Virus record (IMG/VR): IMGVR_UViG_3300023055_000005
Direction: 5' to 3' (one strand)
Length of the DNA: 64,000 nucleotides
Source of the DNA: a virus
Lineage: Duplodnaviria; Caudoviricetes
Position numbers and translations under genes: made by a program. Positions within the stretch are counted from its first letter, which is position 1, and each line of letters opens with the position of its first letter. Below, piece by piece: positions 5,789-61,344 of the stretch. Under the pieces are notes generated by a model that worked only from the letters and a program-made list of their open reading frames with translations, did no database searches and was not told where the DNA came from.

Positions 5789-5797
5789 CGGGCCATG

Positions 5798-5850
5798 TAG
5801 CCTGCCTAGGAGGACTTCGGTTCTCCTAGGCAGCTATGCCCTTTATGCCG
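5798..5850 (+). terminator. Hairpin followed by TATGCC (twice)
   Basis: ctgcctaggag/ctcctaggcag stem directly after the 4913 gene. Confidence 0.8.
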
Positions 5851-14411: not shown

Positions 14412-15661
14412 TGGACGTTACCGATCTCGATGAAACCACCCTGCTTCCGGAAGACTTCGGTAGCGAAGAGCTGTCCAAGATGGAAGACGTGGAGACCTCC
14501 ATGGAGGCGCTGCTCGGACACATCGAACGTATCGCTGAAGTCGGCGGTATCTCGATGGAGCAGGCCGAACAGCTGGTGGTCGAACACGCCATCGAACTTG
14601 GCCGCATCCCGGTCAAGAGCTTCACCAAGGAACCTTCCACCACCAACCTGAAGGTGGCGCAGGAAGCAATCACCGTGGGTCAGGCTGTCCTGATCGGCGC
14701 TCTGGTCGGCGTGGCAGCAGCCCTGCTCATCAAGCTGACGGTGTGGATGGTGGAGTACTTCCGCAGCAACCGCACCAAGGAAGCCAAGACCTCCGTGGTG
14801 GTCAACAACGTCATGGCGCTGAACGAAGCCATGGACGAAGTCGAGCCGCTGTTCCAGGGCACCGCATTGCAGGAGATCCGCAAGCGCCTGGGCAACGACC
14901 GTGAAATGGTGTCGCAGCTGCGCGCCATCCATGAAGACCTGCTGACCAGCGGTCCGTTCTCCACGTTCCTGGGCACCTGCTGGGAGAAGCTGGATCAGTG
15001 GGAGGAGAAGCTCAGCGAGAAGATCTCCAACTACATCCGTCTCTCCGGCCAGACCGTGCGCGAAGGCGACCAGCGCTCCAACGACGTGCTGGTGGAAATG
15101 CTCGATGAGATCGCACGTCCCATTCCGATGTTCTCCTTCCCCAGCGAAGTGACCGCCGGTGTGTTCGTGTCCGAATCCATCCACTCGGACATCCTGCCGG
15201 TGGCCAACGCCATCTACCAGTCGGTGACCAAGCTGGATCAGCAGCCGGTGGCAGTGGACGATATCGACCGCCTGGTCAAGCGTGTGGTCGATGGTGCCTT
15301 CGTGACCCGTTCGGTCTACGGTCCGATGGAAAGCTCCCTGCGTGGCGCCGTTCGTCTGAACGCAGCCGCCCGGAAGCTCAAGTCCGTGGAGAAGACCACC
15401 TCCAACGATCCGCGCGTGGCCTCCACCTACAGCAAGGCGCTGAAGAACATCACCGAAGAGACCCGTGCTCTGGTGGTCATGTGGAACTCAGTGGAAGTGA
15501 TGGCAGCGGCCCGTCGTCGCCTGCTCACGCTTTCGCTGAACCGCATGCTGGCCTTCTTCTCCGAGTTGAACAAGGTGGCCATGGCATCCGAAGACGCTGA
15601 ACTGCGTGGTCGTATCGCCAAGATCACCGCCGAACTGAAGCGCCGCATGCGTCGTTTCTGA
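14411..15661 (+). CDS. Head/ejection protein (gp86-like by synteny)
   Basis: Acidic propeptide with SMEA/AQEA protease-type sites, then a hydrophobic segment. Confidence 0.65.
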   Translation: MDVTDLDETTLLPEDFGSEELSKMEDVETSMEALLGHIERIAEVGGISMEQAEQLVVEHAIELGRIPVKSFTKEPSTTNLKVAQEAITVGQAVLIGALVGVAAALLIKLTVWMVEYFRSNRTKEAKTSVVVNNVMALNEAMDEVEPLFQGTALQEIRKRLGNDREMVSQLRAIHEDLLTSGPFSTFLGTCWEKLDQWEEKLSEKISNYIRLSGQTVREGDQRSNDVLVEMLDEIARPIPMFSFPSEVTAGVFVSESIHSDILPVANAIYQSVTKLDQQPVAVDDIDRLVKRVVDGAFVTRSVYGPMESSLRGAVRLNAAARKLKSVEKTTSNDPRVASTYSKALKNITEETRALVVMWNSVEVMAAARRRLLTLSLNRMLAFFSELNKVAMASEDAELRGRIAKITAELKRRMRRF

Positions 15662-15663
15662 AC

Positions 15664-15705
15664 AACATAGAGGGAGGGGCGAAAGCCCCTCCCCTTATGC
15701 CTTTT
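15664..15705. terminator. Bidirectional hairpin with CATA...TATGCC flanks
   Basis: gggaggggc-gaaa-gcccctccc between convergent genes. Confidence 0.85.
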
Positions 15706-24148: not shown

Positions 24149-25459
24149 GTGGATGATTACAAATCGTCCGACGTCGAAGCTTTCGCCGATGATGCCATTG
24201 CTCAGGCAGTGGTTGAAACCCGTGATCCCAATGTGGCCGTAGCGGAGGACGTTGTTGAAACGGCCTTCACTGAATCGGTTGCAGAGATCGATCGTGGGGC
24301 TGGTGAGCTGGATGACGTCAATCGCGCAATGGACCTTGCCGATGGGTTGCAGCGTCTGTCTCTGGTCACCTCCGATATCCAGGAAGCTACTCCCCACGAA
24401 GCTGCCCTCACCCAGATCGCTCTGGAGATGGCACTGGCTGGTACGGGTCGCTTGCCGGAGTCGCTGGCACCGGGGCTGGAAAGCAGCATCGGCTCGAAGA
24501 TCTCGATGGAAGGTGTGGGCGAGACCATCGCTCGTATCTGGCAGCGCATCATGGACGTCATCCGTCGTGTGCTGGCTTCCATCGCTGCATTCTTCCAACG
24601 CGCCATGGGACAGATCGCTGTCCTGAAGCGTCGTGCACAACGTATCGTCTCCCGTGCCAAGGCCGCCTCCGGGCAGCCGCTGGAGTCGCCGACCGTCGCT
24701 CTGGGCAGTGATGCCTATTCGCTGGCAGTGCAGGGGCGTCCCCCGGCAGCTGTGGGCCAGATCGATGCGGCGCTGCGTGAGATGACACGTCAGGGTGAGA
24801 TCCTGTTCCAGGTCTACCCCACTGCCATCAACGATACCCTGGGCAAGGTCAACGAAGCTCTGGGTGATTTCGCCAATGGTCGTGCGCAGCAGGCTGTGCG
24901 TGCGGTCAAGTCCGGCGAAGACATCTTCGATCCGTGGAAGATGGCTACCAAGTTCCGTACCTCGGTTCCCTTTGCTGATCCGCGCTTTGAGCCGGGTACT
25001 GCCAAGGTGGTTCGTGGTCTGCCTGGTGGCTGGGGTCTGGTGTTCGTTGCGGCAGGTCATCAGGGCGCTGGCATGCAGTGGGTCCGTACGGTCTCCGATG
25101 CACAGCAGCCCAGTGGCACCGAGACCATGGCGACGATTCCTGCACAGCAGTGCAACTCGTTGGCTGAACGTGTCTTTGACATGCTCACCTTCGTGGAGAA
25201 GGTCGAAGGCGGCAACTTCTTCCAGAACATGGAGAAGGCCTTCGGTGAACTGGATCGACGCGGCAAGCAGGTGATGTCTGCCACTGAGGCAGAGAAGAAC
25301 CCGCAGGCCAGTGGAGCCAAGAAGGTGCTGTTGGGCTTCCTGTCCAACTTCACCCATCGCACCATCGGTCCGATGAGTCAGTTCCTGGGCCACTTCATTG
25401 TGGTCTGTCGTTCGGCCATGTCCGTCATGGAACGTTCGCTGGCTCTGCATCAGCGTTAA
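24149..25459 (+). CDS. Head protein, gp93-family paralog
   Basis: GLES/SMEG sites followed by IARIWQRIMDVIRRV; AAGGAG SD. Confidence 0.75.
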   Translation: MDDYKSSDVEAFADDAIAQAVVETRDPNVAVAEDVVETAFTESVAEIDRGAGELDDVNRAMDLADGLQRLSLVTSDIQEATPHEAALTQIALEMALAGTGRLPESLAPGLESSIGSKISMEGVGETIARIWQRIMDVIRRVLASIAAFFQRAMGQIAVLKRRAQRIVSRAKAASGQPLESPTVALGSDAYSLAVQGRPPAAVGQIDAALREMTRQGEILFQVYPTAINDTLGKVNEALGDFANGRAQQAVRAVKSGEDIFDPWKMATKFRTSVPFADPRFEPGTAKVVRGLPGGWGLVFVAAGHQGAGMQWVRTVSDAQQPSGTETMATIPAQQCNSLAERVFDMLTFVEKVEGGNFFQNMEKAFGELDRRGKQVMSATEAEKNPQASGAKKVLLGFLSNFTHRTIGPMSQFLGHFIVVCRSAMSVMERSLALHQR

Positions 25460-25466
25460 CTGGTAT

Positions 25467-25505
25467 GGGGAGACCCTTCGGGGTCTCCCCCTATGTCGCT
25501 ATGCC
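25467..25505 (+). terminator. Hairpin (TTCG loop) followed by TATGTC and TATGCC
   Basis: ggggagaccc/gggtctcccc stem. Confidence 0.8.
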
Positions 25506-25528
25506 CTAAAACCATGATTCAAATAAGT

Positions 25529-38901: not shown

Positions 38902-39102
38902 ATGTTCAGCAAAGAGAAACACTTCACATCGGTGATTGCGCAGGGGATCATCAGTGACCTCAGTCGCTCTGTACGCGAGGCAGAGAAGGCGGCCAGCGAA
39001 AGAGCCAAGCGCGAGGCAATTCGCACCGGTGGTCGGAAGGCTGGTCTCCAGAACTCCGGCGGGAAGAAGTTCCAACGCATGGCTGCCCGTAGCCGCGGGT
39101 GA
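38902..39102 (+). CDS. Small basic protein
   Basis: GAGGAG SD. Confidence 0.65.
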   Translation: MFSKEKHFTSVIAQGIISDLSRSVREAEKAASERAKREAIRTGGRKAGLQNSGGKKFQRMAARSRG

Positions 39103-39107
39103 TAACG

Positions 39108-39137
39108 CAGGAGAGCCTTCGGGCTCTCCTGTATGCC
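39108..39137 (+). terminator. Hairpin (TTCG) followed by TATGCC
   Basis: caggagagcc/ggctctcctg stem. Confidence 0.8.
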
Positions 39138-39187
39138 GTAAATGAAAACGCAATGAAAGAATGTAATGACTAACCGAGGAGTATGAC

Positions 39188-40962: not shown

Positions 40963-41234
40963 AGTACGTTGTCATGGTAGCCAGCACGATCATCTTCGCC
41001 GCGCTGGTGATCATCTCGATCATCCTCGCATCGCTGTTGTTCATCTCCGGCTATAGTCCTCGTGTGCAGACTGCCAATGTTGAAACTCCCAGCATTGGCG
41101 TGGAGGTGCGGTACTTCATGGTGGACGGAATGCAGTGGGTGCACTTCATTCCTCCTGGTAGCTCCATGGAGTGCATACAGCGCCGGCACAAAGCCCTCTC
41201 GGTCCAATGTGTACCGCTGAAGCAAGAGCCCTGA
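40959..41234 (+). CDS. N-terminal TM protein
   Basis: ATGA overlap; long hydrophobic N-terminus. Confidence 0.65.
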   Translation: MKYVVMVASTIIFAALVIISIILASLLFISGYSPRVQTANVETPSIGVEVRYFMVDGMQWVHFIPPGSSMECIQRRHKALSVQCVPLKQEP

Positions 41235-41238
41235 GAAA

Positions 41239-41279
41239 GGCATACAGGAGGCCCTACGGGGCCTCCTGCTTTTATGCCG
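41239..41279. terminator. Hairpin with GGCATA...TATGCC flanks
   Basis: caggaggccc/gggcctcctg stem. Confidence 0.8.
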
Positions 41280-46936: not shown

Positions 46937-46942
46937 GTGAAC

Positions 46943-46981
46943 GGGAGGGGCTTCGGCCCCTCCCTCTATGTCTTTTTTTTT
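46943..46981 (+). terminator. Hairpin (TTCG), TATGTC and T-tract
   Basis: gggaggggc/gcccctccc stem. Confidence 0.85.
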
Positions 46982-47862: not shown

Positions 47863-48092
47863 TGTTCATCGGTCTGTTCAAAATGGCACTCGGCATCGGC
47901 GGGTTGTTCTTCACCCTGCTGGGCATGTTCGTGTTCTTCAAGGTGTTCATCGCGCCCAAGGTTGCGCCGATGGATACCTCCAACCGGATCAACCACCTGC
48001 GCCTGCTTTGGTTCGTGCTGGCCAGGCCGGAACTGTTCGTCGACACGTTCCCGTGGCTGAAGAACGATGAGCTGAAGAACGTCACCAAGTGA
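47862..48092 (+). CDS. Small membrane protein
   Basis: TGATG coupling; N-terminal TM. Confidence 0.7.
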   Translation: MFIGLFKMALGIGGLFFTLLGMFVFFKVFIAPKVAPMDTSNRINHLRLLWFVLARPELFVDTFPWLKNDELKNVTK

Positions 48093-48130
48093 CATATCGC
48101 CCCTCCCAGACGGGAGGGGCTTTATGCCGA
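48091..48130. terminator. Hairpin with GACATA...TATGCC flanks
   Basis: gcccctccc/gggaggggc stem. Confidence 0.8.
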
Positions 48131-48141
48131 TTCCAATATGT

Positions 48142-48166
48142 TTCAACCCTATATAACTCATGTGAG
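48142..48166 (+). promoter_or_regulatory. Phage (putative early) promoter copy 7
   Basis: TTCAACCC-TATATA-ACTCAT-GTGAG. Confidence 0.8.
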
Positions 48167-48497: not shown

Positions 48498-49523
48498 ATG
48501 AAAAAGAAAGTAACTGAAACGAAGAACGCCGCAACTACCGTGGACAACACCGAGTACTACGAACTGATTGCCAAGCGCAAGAAGCTCGCCGCTCGTGCCA
48601 AGAAGCTGACGGACGCTGGCAAGCCGGTCCCGACCAAGCTTCGCGACGAAATGGCTGCCCTGAAACGACAGACCAACAAGTCCTCCATCGTCCTCGGCAA
48701 GGGTCTCAAGACCCTGGCTACCAAGCCGAACGATGTGAAGGAAGTCAAGGTGGTTGACATCACCACCACGACCACCATCACCGAACTGGCAAAGGCGCTG
48801 GGCATGCGTCCGAGCGGACTGGTGAGCCGCCTGTTCCGTCATGGGACTACTGCGGTGAGCGGTGACAAGGTGACCACGCTCAAGAGCGCCGTCAAGGTTC
48901 TCAACGAGATCGGCTCGAAGGAAGGCTTCAAGGTCCAGCTCGTCGAATCCACTGCGGTGGACAAGCTCACCGATGCGTTCAGCACTGCGACCAAGAATCG
49001 CCGTGTGCGCAAGAAGCCGCTGACCAAGATCGCCATTTCCCCGCGTATCACCATCGAGCAGCTGGCTGAAAAGCTGGACATCACCAAGAACGCGCTGGTC
49101 AAGCACTACTTCGCCGAGAAGAAGATCGTGTCCACCTCGCAGACCGTTGCGTCGGCAGGTCGCATCCTCGCTCGCAAGATCGCTCACGAGCTGGGCTTCG
49201 AGTTGACCTACACCAAGGTCGGCAAGGTGTCCAAGACGGTCTCCCAGTCCGAAGCGGGTCTCACCATGCGTCAGCTGGAAAACGAGATCTTCAAGGTCGA
49301 CGGTCTGCGCATCGTCTTCCGCGTCGATCAGAACGTTCGCTCGGGGATTGCCAAGTGGGGTCAGCGTATGCCTGACAGCGCCACGATCTCCAGCCTGCAC
49401 GCTCGGCTGAAGCGGCACCACGCGGACTTCAAGGACTGCCAGTTTGTCATCACCGACAAGAACGGCGACGCCTTCACGTCCACCAGCAACCGCAAGCAGA
49501 AGCTCTCGGCTCTGGCTTTCTAA
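48498..49523 (+). CDS. Basic protein with two IF2 N-terminal-domain-like repeats
   Basis: TITELAKALGMRPSGLVSRLF and ITIEQLAEKLDITKNALVKHYF..ARKIAHELG resemble IF2 ITVxELAxK..VIK..M..AE++A+E+G. Confidence 0.7.
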   Translation: MKKKVTETKNAATTVDNTEYYELIAKRKKLAARAKKLTDAGKPVPTKLRDEMAALKRQTNKSSIVLGKGLKTLATKPNDVKEVKVVDITTTTTITELAKALGMRPSGLVSRLFRHGTTAVSGDKVTTLKSAVKVLNEIGSKEGFKVQLVESTAVDKLTDAFSTATKNRRVRKKPLTKIAISPRITIEQLAEKLDITKNALVKHYFAEKKIVSTSQTVASAGRILARKIAHELGFELTYTKVGKVSKTVSQSEAGLTMRQLENEIFKVDGLRIVFRVDQNVRSGIAKWGQRMPDSATISSLHARLKRHHADFKDCQFVITDKNGDAFTSTSNRKQKLSALAF

Positions 49524-50705: not shown

Positions 50706-51209
50706 ATGAACAGCAAGACCCCGCGTTACATAGCGGTCCTTGACATGCTGAACATCGGCCGCATGACCAACGCCGACGGTGACCTCATGGTCATCGATAC
50801 CACCACCGCTGAACACGTTTTTCTTTATTTGGCAATTCGTGAAGAAGGAAGTGAAGAAGAGGGGGATTATGGTGTCGAGTTGGAGATAGTCGGCGCACGC
50901 GACAACATTCCCCAGAACCCGGTCGAAGAGGACAACCTGGCAGCTGCTCGGCGACTGGCCAACGGTGCCTACAGCATCCTCTGCAGCGCTCTGGACATCA
51001 TCCGGGAAAATCCAGAAAGCGAAGTCTTCGCCCACCGCGCCCTGGCTAAGGCCTCCGTCAAATACAACTGCGAAGATAGCGAACATCTGACTGAGAAAGT
51101 GCTGTACTCGGTCATGCAATCGAATGATGCCTGTCATGAAAAAGTCGAACTGACCATCCTGACCGACAAGTTGATCAGGCGCACCTTTGATCTGGGTGAT
51201 CGTACCTAA
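50706..51209 (+). CDS. Hypothetical acidic protein
   Basis: GGAG SD. Confidence 0.7.
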   Translation: MNSKTPRYIAVLDMLNIGRMTNADGDLMVIDTTTAEHVFLYLAIREEGSEEEGDYGVELEIVGARDNIPQNPVEEDNLAAARRLANGAYSILCSALDIIRENPESEVFAHRALAKASVKYNCEDSEHLTEKVLYSVMQSNDACHEKVELTILTDKLIRRTFDLGDRT

Positions 51210-51248
51210 GTCCCACACTCGCCCAACAACTACCCAACCGAGGTTCCC

Positions 51249-51503
51249 ATGGCCAGCAAAGCCGTCAAGCGGTTGACCGCAAGGTATACCCGCAAGCGCA
51301 ACTCGTTCCTGCTCTACGCAGCCCTGATGATGATCGTCTGTTTCTCGATGGGACTCATCCTTCCCAACGCCAGTGTGTTCGGCAGTTACAAGTGGGCGGT
51401 ACTGGGAGTGCAGCTGGGATTGTTCTTCTTCGCCGCAGTCGCCGCAGTCAAGAAGTTCTGGCCGGCATACTACGACTACCTCCGATTGCGGAGTGTGGCG
51501 TAA
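51249..51503 (+). CDS. Two-TM membrane protein
   Basis: GAGG SD; two hydrophobic segments. Confidence 0.7.
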   Translation: MASKAVKRLTARYTRKRNSFLLYAALMMIVCFSMGLILPNASVFGSYKWAVLGVQLGLFFFAAVAAVKKFWPAYYDYLRLRSVA

Positions 51504-51529
51504 TTTGCTACACGAGCAGGCCTATAATC

Positions 51530-51810
51530 TGTACAAGTCAGTGTGCACTGCAGCTCCTCCGATAACCCGAATGTAGGCACGGCCATGCGTGCTGATCATC
51601 TATCCCGTTCGTGTACGGGAAAGCTCTTTAGGGGGAGCCATAATCGGAGTCAAAGCGCAGCACATACCCTGCATCAACATCGTTTGTCTGATCGACCTAC
51701 TTGCTCGGGTTGCTAGGATCGCGGAGTTGTTGCCTGACTCTTCTGCTAGGTTGGGGTGGCAGTTTATTCCAAGCATTAGGCCTGCTCCTTCGGGGGCAGG
51801 CTTTATGCCC
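51530..51810 (+). ncRNA. Candidate structured non-coding RNA (multi-helix junction plus pseudoknot) ending in a UUCG terminator
   Basis: About 340-nt gap without an SD-led, codon-biased ORF; about eight complementary segments found by eye; G-U pairs favour the + strand. Confidence 0.6.
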
Positions 51811-51844
51811 TTATGCGCTTTTCGAATACCACAACGGAGTTCCA

Positions 51845-52009
51845 ATGACTGAAGATAAGTTCACCAAGTGTAAGCCGGGTTCCTTCCTCGACAAGATGTA
51901 CCGCGAGAAGTTCGGGCAGGTTTACATTGACTACATTGAAGTGGAAGAGCAGTGCACCTCGCGCTCCTCCACTGGGCCGGAGTTTGAGTTCGAGGATCTC
52001 GACGCATGA
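51845..52009 (+). CDS. Small acidic protein (54 aa)
   Basis: GGAG SD before ATG 51845. Confidence 0.65.
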   Translation: MTEDKFTKCKPGSFLDKMYREKFGQVYIDYIEVEEQCTSRSSTGPEFEFEDLDA

Positions 52010-52539
52010 ACTTCATGCCCCTGCTCTGCAATAAGCTGTGCATCTGCAAGTCCTCGTTCGGCTGGCTCATCATGACGCCGCTGTTCGTCTACATGTCCTC
52101 CTCTTCGGCGATGATGGGTCCGATCGTCTCCGGGTCCACCGCACTCACGATCAACGGCTGGTTGGTCACGTGGAAGTGGAAAGGCAAGCTGGTGTTCATG
52201 TGGTCCTTCACTGAACTGCTCCCCGCGGTTAAGAAGTGGATCCTTGGACCGAATACCAACGAGTTCAAGGAGACCGGGGCGTGGACCTACGCCTACCTGC
52301 CTGATGGCTCGTCGGCGATCGTCAAAGAGGGCTACCTCACCGTCCACAATCGCCGCTGGCGTAAGAGCGTTCCACATGGCCGTCTGTACGAGGTCGTTGG
52401 CTTCCCCGGTTATCTCAAGGCGCCATGCCTTCAAAGCGCCGCAGAAAAGGCCGAAGCATCCTTCAAGGCACTCGAAGAGTTGTCGGGACTGGTCAACGAA
52501 CTGCAAACCGATATCAACAACTCTGCACTGAAAGCGTAA
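52006..52539 (+). CDS. Hypothetical protein
   Basis: ATGA overlap. Confidence 0.7.
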   Translation: MNFMPLLCNKLCICKSSFGWLIMTPLFVYMSSSSAMMGPIVSGSTALTINGWLVTWKWKGKLVFMWSFTELLPAVKKWILGPNTNEFKETGAWTYAYLPDGSSAIVKEGYLTVHNRRWRKSVPHGRLYEVVGFPGYLKAPCLQSAAEKAEASFKALEELSGLVNELQTDINNSALKA

Positions 52540-54721: not shown

Positions 54722-54959
54722 GATGATGAAGGAGCGTCCTGAGCTGAAGGAGGCTCCGGTCGGCAGCAAAGGGCGCGAACCCAAGCTCAGCGATATCGCG
54801 GCAGTGATGCTCCCCAACAACGCCGAAGCAGTGGCGCGTGGGGAAGTCATCGAAGCCTGGCAGCACTGGTACAGGACCAACCGTGCAATCATCGAGGCGG
54901 CATTTGCCAAGTATGGCATCAAACCGCCGGTCCTTACCGAAGACAAGACGAGCAAGTAA
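54591..54959 (+). CDS. o-spanin (Rz1-like lipoprotein)
   Basis: MKSANKLALKTTLLVLVLLALLG-C lipobox; Pro-rich linker; starts 131 nt inside the i-spanin gene in another frame. Confidence 0.8.
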   Translation: MKSANKLALKTTLLVLVLLALLGCTTNRSKSPSPQQNLPQVTDEMMKERPELKEAPVGSKGREPKLSDIAAVMLPNNAEAVARGEVIEAWQHWYRTNRAIIEAAFAKYGIKPPVLTEDKTSK

Positions 54960-59080: not shown

Positions 59081-60793
59081 ATGAAGACTCTGCAGCAGCG
59101 TGTTGCACGTGAGAAGCTGGAACAGGCAGTCGCCGACTCCGCCCAGCTGATCCACGTTGACCGCTCCGTCCGTCGTATCCTCCCGGCCATGGAGTCGGTG
59201 GGTGCACAGCTGAAGAAGAACGGCGGCAAGTCCCCGTTCCTGGCCATCGCCCTGCGCGCTGGCGCTCGTGAACTCCTGCCCCTGAACAAGGCACCGGCCA
59301 TGGAGTCCTTCGAGGACACCGAGGGTCTGCAGGGAGTCAGCGACGAGATCGTCGAACGCCTGAACGTGATGGGTCCGCAGGTCGCCGTGGAATCGGCCCG
59401 TGCCCAGAACCTGATCGCCGGCCTGAACTACCAGCTCACCACCGAATCGTTCGAAGAGGAAGTGGCCGAGGGTATCCCGGTCGACGAAGACGGCGACGAA
59501 GACGAAACGCTCTACGCCGACGACGGTGCTACCGAAGCCGATGCCGCTGCCGCTGCTGAAGAAGAAGCGGAACTGTCGGCGGCCGAGGACGAGACTGAAG
59601 TCTCCACCGAAGAGCTGATGGAAGAAGAAGAAGCCATCATCGAAACCGGCGAGCGTGAATCCGAAGCCGAAGCGGCCAACGACACCCTGAACGAATTCCA
59701 GGGCGCCGTGGAAACCGTCAACGAAGAAGGCGGCTTCGCTGATGAAGCTGCGGTGGAAGAAGCCGAAGTCGCGCTGGAAGCCATCGCTGCGATGTACAAC
59801 ACCCCGGCCGTCAAGCTGAGCTTCGAGAAGGCTGACAACGGCAAGCTGCTGGTGTCCACCGAAGCCATCGACCAGATGCGCGGCAACCTGGTGATCTCCC
59901 AGGAAAACATCGCCAAGCGTGCACTGGCTGCCCTGATCCGTCGTGACGTGGCGTTCTACAACGCCATCGAAACCGGTGCGTTCATGCTGGGCCGCCTGAT
60001 GAAGAAGGTCGCCGACACCCCGTCCCAGCGTCAGCCGCGCAAGGTCGAAGTCGTCGTCAACATGTCCTCGCTGCACCGCAACGGCGAACTGCCGACGGAC
60101 CTGGCCGGTCACCTGATCGGTTACGCCCAGCTGGCCGAATACGTCACCGGTCGTTTCGTGGACGTGGCCAAGGACGCCTACCAGACCAACATCGGCCTGG
60201 TCAGTGGCCTGAACCGCATCACCGACGTCGAGTTCCAGCGTCGCTGGGCTGGCCTGCCGTCCAAGTGGCGTGACCCGCGTTCTGCCCTGACCGAAGCGCA
60301 GATGCAGTACCCGATCCCGGGCGGTCGCCGCATGTTCGAGAACAAGTCCACGACCTACGACGGCACGGATCGTACGACCCAGTTCCTGGACAAGTACGCC
60401 AGCTTCAACATCCCCACCCGGATGTTCGAAGACTCCGACGGCACCCGCGTGGGTCGCATCCTCGTCCCGGTGCTGCCGCCGGAGAAGATCGGTGCGATCA
60501 CCCGTGCGTTCCTGAAGGTCGCGCAGGGCTTCAGTCGCAAGCGCTCGGCGATGGAATACCTGAAGACCTACGTCCTGGGTCCGGCCGGTGTTGCCATCTT
60601 CAACACCGCAGTGCATGCGCTGTCCACCCCGGGCTTCCAGGGTGACCGCGACCAGCGCTTCTACGTGAAACGTGCACTGAAGCTGAGCAGCGAGATGCGT
60701 TACCGCGTCACGACTGACAACATGCGGATGTTCAAGTTCATCCTGTACTCGTACAACGTGATGGCCCGCAAGATGCTCAAGCAGTACAGCTGA
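59081..60793 (+). CDS. Head/inner-body protein, gp93/gp162-family-like, with long acidic propeptide
   Basis: AMES/AVES/TTES/STEA sites and an E/A/D-rich linker; start at MKTLQQ. Confidence 0.7.
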   Translation: MKTLQQRVAREKLEQAVADSAQLIHVDRSVRRILPAMESVGAQLKKNGGKSPFLAIALRAGARELLPLNKAPAMESFEDTEGLQGVSDEIVERLNVMGPQVAVESARAQNLIAGLNYQLTTESFEEEVAEGIPVDEDGDEDETLYADDGATEADAAAAAEEEAELSAAEDETEVSTEELMEEEEAIIETGERESEAEAANDTLNEFQGAVETVNEEGGFADEAAVEEAEVALEAIAAMYNTPAVKLSFEKADNGKLLVSTEAIDQMRGNLVISQENIAKRALAALIRRDVAFYNAIETGAFMLGRLMKKVADTPSQRQPRKVEVVVNMSSLHRNGELPTDLAGHLIGYAQLAEYVTGRFVDVAKDAYQTNIGLVSGLNRITDVEFQRRWAGLPSKWRDPRSALTEAQMQYPIPGGRRMFENKSTTYDGTDRTTQFLDKYASFNIPTRMFEDSDGTRVGRILVPVLPPEKIGAITRAFLKVAQGFSRKRSAMEYLKTYVLGPAGVAIFNTAVHALSTPGFQGDRDQRFYVKRALKLSSEMRYRVTTDNMRMFKFILYSYNVMARKMLKQYS

Positions 60794-60802
60794 TTCGTCA
60801 GC

Positions 60803-60840
60803 GACATACGGAGGGGGCACTCGCCCCCTCCGCTATGCCG
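60803..60840. terminator. Hairpin with GACATA...TATGCC flanks
   Basis: cggagggggc/gccccctccg stem. Confidence 0.8.
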
Positions 60841-61187: not shown

Positions 61188-61307
61188 ATGGACGAAGTAA
61201 CCGAAGATAACAAAGATGTGTCCGAGGCGCTGCTACAGGCGCAGCACGAAGCGAATTGTAAGTTCGCTGACATGCTGACACATGCCCTTACGGGCGAATG
61301 TGGCTGA
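61188..61307 (+). CDS. Micropeptide (39 aa) missed by the track
   Basis: GAGG/GAG upstream; ends just before a hairpin. Confidence 0.4.
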   Translation: MDEVTEDNKDVSEALLQAQHEANCKFADMLTHALTGECG

Positions 61308-61314
61308 GCATTGG

Positions 61315-61344
61315 GGGAGGAGCTTCGGCTCTTCCCTTATGCCG
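61315..61344 (+). terminator. Hairpin (TTCG) followed by TATGCC
   Basis: gggaggagc/gctcttccc stem. Confidence 0.7.

Follow-up and report, generated by a model that had tools for sequence, protein, structure and literature searches.

A conserved, clade-restricted structured RNA in the early region of Xoo-sp14-like Xanthomonas jumbo phages

In nucleus-forming jumbo phages transcription and translation are separated, and to our knowledge the RNA biology of these viruses has barely been charted; few small RNAs (sRNAs) have been mapped, and we know of none to which a function has been assigned. Intergenic and 5' UTR-derived sRNAs are made by the nucleus-forming giant phages 201phi2-1 and phiKZ, as revealed by ONT-cappable-seq (PMC11512511, PMC10914365). 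We describe an RNA element located within a 64,000-nucleotide stretch of phage DNA (IMG/VR record IMGVR_UViG_3300023055_000005), referred to here as the window, that resembles those sRNAs in belonging to a broadly related phage and in forming a short noncoding unit bounded by an intrinsic terminator. The sRNAs of 201phi2-1 and phiKZ are shorter than 250 nt and were observed experimentally, whereas the element is about 270 nt long, multi-branched and known from sequence alone. There is no sequence or model match between them, and R1, a covariance model of the 5' domain of the element, finds no copy in four related jumbo phages (RTH11, LucasX, pEa_SNUABM_54 and FLC9), from which the neighboring 313-aa gene is likewise absent.

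Other described RNAs share particular features with the element. Junction-aptamer riboswitch and attenuator leaders, such as those organized around a four-way junction, combine a conserved multi-helix junction, a variable region and a terminator ahead of open reading frames (ORFs), as does the element, and in both the terminator arm has other conceivable partners; but the element matches no Rfam family at even E = 0.2, is followed by no ligand-related genes, has a weak antiterminator and is distributed over six phages only. The 7-bp closing stem (P2), three hairpins and four-way junction recall the cloverleaf of tRNAs and tRNA-like structures, but the element lacks a 7-nt anticodon-type loop, the T-loop consensus and a CCA end, and its stem extends into a further rod (P1b-P1). 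The put RNA of phage HK022, a cis-acting antitermination RNA of about 70 nt with two stem-loops, lies just after promoters; the element is also a structured RNA of an early operon, one with several terminators directly before genes, but it is present as a single copy 3.4 kb from the nearest promoter motif (at 48141). GOLLD, ROOL, HEARO and other large structured ncRNAs in Rfam, like the element, are phage-carried RNAs of complex fold, but the element is much smaller and shows no Rfam 15 match at the gathering threshold or at E <= 10.

A cmscan of the whole window against Rfam 15 (4,227 models, including ribozymes, riboswitches, 6S, SRP, RNase P, tmRNA, GOLLD and ROOL) returned no match at the gathering threshold. 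On 51400-51950 the best sub-threshold hit was to STnc70 (18.4 bits, with 40 needed), the Na+ riboswitch (16.2 bits, with 40.5 needed) and a toxic sRNA (14.2 bits, with 50 needed) also fell below threshold, and no ribozyme or riboswitch model matched at E <= 10. ARAGORN detected no tRNA or tmRNA gene in the window. A sequence-only reading of this DNA had proposed an unclassified structured RNA here, and the designation stands: there is no Rfam or tRNA match and no conserved ORF, and conservation far exceeds that of the flanks.

The gap between genes that contains the element, 51504-51844, is real: the stop codon of an 84-aa ORF occupies 51501-51503 and the ATG of a 54-aa ORF is at 51845. By blastn, the window is 76.5% identical to Xanthomonas jumbo phage Xoo-sp14 (MT939492, 232 kb) over 51200-52100, and window positions 10.8-59.6 kb are colinear with the first 50 kb of the Xoo-sp14 genome. 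The DNA polymerase of the window is 94% identical to that of Xoo-sp14 and 38-47% identical to those of RTH11, LucasX, 201phi2-1 and PhiPA3, and the window phage can thus be placed among the phiKZ-like giant phages. The corresponding 340-nt gap in Xoo-sp14 is unannotated and is the largest truly noncoding gap in the first 50 kb of that genome. Flanking proteins display amino acid identities of only 47-83% between relatives, and the neighboring proteins are all ORFans, with no match in Pfam, PHROGs or the ESM Atlas. The upstream 167-aa gene (50706-51209) has no detectable counterpart in Xoo-sp14 and its product is 35% identical in the IMG/VR relative; a 180-aa protein encoded nearby is 82% identical in the IMG/VR relative and only 42% in Xoo-sp14, so that a fast-changing gene cassette lies directly beside a highly conserved RNA. 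An Arg-rich and an IF2N-like protein had been mentioned as speculative partners of the RNA. A 341-aa protein (48498-49523), encoded two genes after the promoter motif at 48141, has an IF2_N match in Pfam (E = 5e-7, above the cutoff) and weak HTH matches. The Arg-rich ORFs of the window appear to be off-frame artifacts of a G+C-rich genome.

Six copies of the element were found in all: those of the window, Xoo-sp14 (L001), one IMG/VR contig (UViG_3300011217_000001; L003/L004) and three SRA contigs (L005, L006 and L016). They fall into clade A (window, L005 and L016) and clade B (Xoo-sp14, L006 and L004), and with R1 the window and Xoo-sp14 each yield a single copy. Scans with invariant 18- to 22-mers extended to metagenome contigs, prokaryote genomes and IMG/VR: JGI metagenome contigs gave four chance matches to a 20-mer, none of which fitted R1; 185,579 prokaryote genomes gave no match to a 22-mer; and three further scans of IMG/VR returned only the contig already known, an earlier 25-mer having given no match. 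Protein searches with three flanking genes recovered only the Xoo-sp14-like group and one new 1-kb contig. As far as these searches reach, the element is confined to Xoo-sp14-like Xanthomonas jumbo phages and represents an undescribed family. The sixth copy, L016:590-885 (SRR25399906 contig), is a mosaic with a window-like 3' arm and an L005-like tail and terminator, which suggests recombination among these phages. The parts of the element and its immediate neighbors, with nucleotide identities between the window and clade B where given, are as follows.

51249-51503, + strand: 84-aa ORF, upstream neighbor of the element; 72-85% identity
51504-51535, + strand: 5' flank, conserved (84-88% identity) and unique in the window, with invariant TTTGCTACAC
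51521-51528, + strand: CCTATAAT box, 7-8 nt upstream of P0
51536-51665 (130 nt), + strand: 5' domain as compared between clades; 92-95% identity
51536-51541, + strand: 5' strand of P0, AGUCAG, pairing with 51734-51739
51542-51665, + strand: 5' domain as folded, a bulged rod ending in a four-way junction
51542-46/51660-64, + strand: rod helix P1
51549-51/51657-59, + strand: rod helix P1a
51553-55/51654-56, + strand: rod helix P1b
51557-63/51643-49, + strand: rod helix P2 (7 bp)
51576-81/51588-93, plus 51571-73/51597-99, + strand: H1, hairpin of the 5' domain
51603-08/51615-20, + strand: H2, hairpin of the 5' domain
51623-27/51634-38, + strand: H3, hairpin of the 5' domain
51671-51733, + strand: 3' arm, a long imperfect hairpin with stem sequence largely rewritten between clades in the same register; 66% identity in the variable part within these limits
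51694-98/51707-11, + strand: H4, apex of the 3' arm, with invariant loop ACUUGCUC at 51699-51706
51734-51739, + strand: 3' strand of P0, CUGACU, within an invariant 18-nt block, GUUGUUGCCUGACUCUUC
51734-51762, + strand: P0'-H5 block; 93% identity
51743-51762 (51743-48/51757-62), + strand: H5, CUGCUA/UGGCAG, with invariant G-rich loop GGUUGGGG and a U-rich spacer after it
51773-51808 (stem 51780-88/51793-801), + strand: terminator GCCUGCUCC-UUCG-GGGGCAGGC with an outer GCAU...AUGC palindrome
51845-52009, + strand: 54-aa ORF, downstream neighbor of the element; 64% identity

The element is an island of 92-95% nucleotide identity between flanks at 64-85%, a contrast that is also evident in a sliding profile. 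The few substitutions in the core sort by the split between clades A and B, and therefore indicate vertical descent under purifying selection and not recent transfer.

All of the complementary segments named in the sequence-only reading were located where it had placed them, and much of the architecture built from them was recovered when the homologs were folded. The bulged closing rod (P1, P1a, P1b and P2), the three hairpins H1-H3 and the UUCG terminator are conserved in 6/6 homologs, and folding of these six sequences agrees with a four-way junction in a + strand phage RNA. In the architecture that emerged, P0 closes a unit composed of the 5' four-way-junction arm and the 3' hairpin arm, and is followed by H5, which also appears in the list of the terminator scan, and then by the terminator. 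Among five sequences this architecture, P0 included, is the minimum free energy (MFE) structure in clade A, and in clade B it comes within 0.8-1.5 kcal/mol of the MFE. RNAalifold applied to six sequences yields the same architecture as the consensus, in which six of 80 pairs carry double changes. P0 cannot be tested by covariation, because both of its strands are invariant, and the same applies to most of the 5' domain. The 3' arm is only 66% identical overall, yet its rod shape is retained. An 11-nt inverted repeat bracketing the element (51514-24/51777-87) proved to be specific to the window and was discarded.

When RNAfold was run against shuffled controls, the + strand of 51530-51810 folded at -106.9 kcal/mol (z = -2.27), compared with a z of -1.66 for the - strand; the core gave -2.22, and the 5' domain alone gave -2.90 in the window and -3.29 in Xoo-sp14. 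The z-scores agree with the earlier argument from G-U pairs for the + strand, on which all such pairs lie. Covariation in relatives was also borne out, with compensatory double changes at six pairs: U-A to C-G in P1 (in the L004 lineage), U-G to G-C at 51689:51716 in the lower part of the 3' arm, A-U to G-C at 51695:51710 in H4, U-A to C-G at 51744:51761 in H5, and two pairs of the terminator, which has one-sided changes at two others. In the 5' domain, which has 39 pairs, pairing over the homologs reaches 99.5%, with three wobble-compatible one-sided changes in addition to the double change in P1. Over the full structure in five sequences, helices are 96.7-100% paired (leaving out the outer terminator helix, which was mis-indexed), with eight wobble-compatible one-sided changes; the covariation score was reached by 0/500 shuffles and slid controls were near zero, a result to be read in the light of a structure chosen and refined partly with these same sequences in view and of a set of six close sequences in two clades, amounting to about three independent lineages and hence few compensatory events. 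For the 5' domain alone the score was reached by 84/500 shuffles and is not significant, because this domain hardly varies. Taken together, these data show a conserved fold common to both clades, in keeping with a + strand RNA maintained by selection.

Parts of the original model fared less well. A 7-bp pseudoknot had been proposed between 51564-70 and 51705-11, but its only variable pair, 51565:51710, is lost in 3/5 sequences (A-U becomes U opposite C in clade B); the change at 51710 is compensated by 51695 within the competing H4, which uses the 3' strand of the pseudoknot. The hairpin 51693-721, in whose loop the pseudoknot had been placed, reaches just 54% pairing over the homologs, and the suggested GUAGG/CCUAC extension gains a mismatch in clade B. 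An invariant 5-bp core of the pseudoknot, CCCGA/UCGGG, may represent an alternative conformer. Two later stems in the same model can be formed in every sequence, but they show no compensatory changes and compete with the 3' arm and H5, the rival helices, which are better supported, H5 by its double change.

The element ends in the standard terminator type of the phage, a G+C-rich hairpin whose loop is often CUUCGG, enclosed by an outer (G)GCATA...TATGCC palindrome. Of the terminators of this shared design, about 24 lie on the + strand of the window (with the TATGCC tail) and 12 on the - strand, and the phage RNA polymerase or a processing factor may recognize the conserved UAUGCC tail as a signal. 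Elsewhere in the genome terminators follow stop codons closely, so the spacer of about 275 nt before the terminator of the element is unusual. A promoter-like motif of about 35 nt, gattccaATAAnTTTCAnCCCTATATaACtCAnGTGAgg (ATAAnTTTCAnCCCTATATaACtCAnGTGAgg), occurs just downstream of several terminators, with 11 matches in the window against 5.1 expected and all good ones on the + strand. Examples of both signals are as follows.

5790-5850, 15650-15702, 25450-25506, 39090-39138, 41230-41279, 48080-48129, 60790-60840 and 61295-61344: terminators of the shared design
5860, 6190, 25528, 41305, 48141 and 61357, + strand: promoter-like motif

The nearest promoter motif upstream of the element is that at 48141, which places the element inside a long + strand early unit with terminators directly before genes. 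Stretches of about 30 nt at 46942-46972 and 48093-48154 recur in at least five other places in the genome and are probably shared terminator and promoter modules. The CCTATAAT box resembles only the CCCTATAT core of the phage promoter motif and not the whole motif, sharing CCTATA with it, and no sigma-70-type site was found at the element; the 5' flank (51504-51535) could be a promoter or processing region.

Seventeen soil "metatranscriptomic" runs contain the element; compared over 12 kb, these runs prove to include the whole phage, assembled into contigs of 190-205 kb at depths of 124-272, and the next 10 kb is equally well represented in more than 24 such runs. The complete phage genome is present in more than 30 small soil "metatranscriptome" libraries (X4-X32; 120-370 Mb each, 2018-2019), and these whole-genome contigs could stem from carried-over DNA, from a bloom of the phage or from a contaminant common to the libraries. 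Because the entire phage genome is present, the soil runs are uninformative on a discrete RNA, and contigs from RNA runs cannot show transcript ends or levels. The low-depth run X14 contains a 1,138-nt contig (50711-51848) that spans the 167-aa gene, the 84-aa gene and the element, and other X14 contigs ignore unit borders.

We favor, with moderate confidence, the view that the element is a stable, trans-acting noncoding RNA of the + strand, extending over approximately 51536-51808 at the end of the early operon. The RNA would be made as the last 270 nt or so of the early + strand transcription unit, with transcription either continuing from the 84-aa gene or beginning at the CCTATAAT box upstream of P0, and its paired 5' end and terminator hairpin would make it stable. 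In trans, a protein or other factor would bind specifically to the 5' domain, whose junctions and loops are nearly invariant, and the invariant loops of H4 and H5 would be available to pair with other sequences. Such a specific binding surface is suggested by the paired 5' end, the 3' terminator and the near-invariance of junctions and loops. Over 9-10 nt, the H4 loop region (51698-51707), UACUUGCUC(G), is complementary to (C)GAGCAAGUA at 54949-54958, directly before the ATG of a 133-aa gene at 54959, which overlaps the gene before it in TAATG; the match is kept in all relatives. The window shows no enrichment of antisense targets (27 10-mers compared with 19 in shuffles), and the match between H4 and 54959 is within chance expectation. 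Nor is there enrichment of the shared start-region motif CCAACGGAGTT, which was considered as a target for the loop of H5.

It is scarcely credible that the element is a small protein gene, either in the + frame that runs from 51528 to about 51716 (for example from an ATG at 51585, giving 42-44 aa) or in the ORF at 51589. The longer frame does stay open for about 62 codons in 5/5 sequences examined, but 10 of the 12 substitutions in its conserved part are nonsynonymous and two synonymous, with some radical replacements (N/I, G/E, T/P and Q/P), its C terminus is rewritten by the variable part of the element, and its listed start is a GTG with neither a Shine-Dalgarno sequence nor an ATG. The 51589 ORF is interrupted by a stop in L005, an ORF on the minus strand is broken in L005 and frameshifted in L004, and the three ORFs of the element have no Pfam or PHROG match. 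No ORF in the element is under protein-level constraint, and these substitution patterns show it to be noncoding. Function at the level of DNA, as a cluster of protein-binding sites, an origin or a recombination hotspot, or else a chance fold within a spacer, would accord with several 6-bp palindromes in the core (GTGCAC, CTGCAG and TGATCA) and with the modest z of the whole element (-2.3); we regard these readings as very improbable, since the compensatory and wobble changes keep pairing only as + strand RNA (G-U pairs being A-C mismatches on the other strand), no origin-like turn in GC skew and no repeats typical of origins occur at the element, and a chance fold cannot explain the identity of the island compared with that of its flanks.

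If the element acts as RNA, it could do so in cis. The main rival to a trans-acting RNA is a leader or attenuator, riboswitch-like or protein sensing, that controls read-through into the 54-aa, 177-aa and 168-aa genes, which lack a promoter of their own; the 5' domain would sense a ligand or protein, and the expression platform would consist of the variable 3' arm, H5 and the terminator. The layout, with a conserved sensor, a variable linker and a terminator, is appropriate to this role, only 44 nt free of any promoter motif separate the end of the terminator from the next ATG, and competing pairings can be drawn: GGGGUGG (51753-59) can pair with the 5' arm of the terminator in every homolog, as is predicted when the RNA is folded without the 3' arm of the terminator, and a pairing of GCGG (51721-24) with CYGC (51743-46) could replace both the 3' arm and H5. 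We nevertheless consider attenuation somewhat unlikely. The antiterminator, with four G-C and three G-U pairs, is weak beside the G+C-rich UUCG terminator with its 9 bp, and its conservation carries no information, as the changes are all one-sided opposite G or U and slid controls are 71-86% paired; other terminators of the operon also lie directly before genes, without a leader, there is no Rfam riboswitch match, and the downstream genes are ORFans that offer no hint of a ligand. The alternative that the element is a structured 3' UTR of the 167-aa/84-aa transcript, serving only to stabilize or process that mRNA, draws on the stretch from the 84-aa gene to the element, in which there is neither a terminator nor a full promoter motif, and on the X14 contig that covers both genes and the element. 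It seems quite unlikely to us: a terminator hairpin alone suffices elsewhere in the genome, near-invariance of 130 nt, loops and junctions included, far exceeds what stability would demand, and the X14 contig proves little, since contig ends in that run disregard other unit borders.

A trans-acting RNA is the reading that we carry forward, and the element itself is a genuine, novel, clade-restricted structured RNA. The family is tiny, with six known copies, and offers no pointer to a new mechanism so far. It is a more tentative and, in our estimation, unlikely proposition that the four-way-junction domain is a new metabolite or protein sensor or the RNA core of a new phage ribonucleoprotein; if so, a new sensor or ribonucleoprotein would control read-through in the early operon or take over a host factor, using a fold without known relatives. 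The multi-branched, 200-nt core of the element is among the most strongly selected features of the early region, while the surrounding ORFan genes drift, and as Xoo-sp14 is a cultured phage of the rice pathogen Xanthomonas oryzae, the RNA is accessible to experiment.
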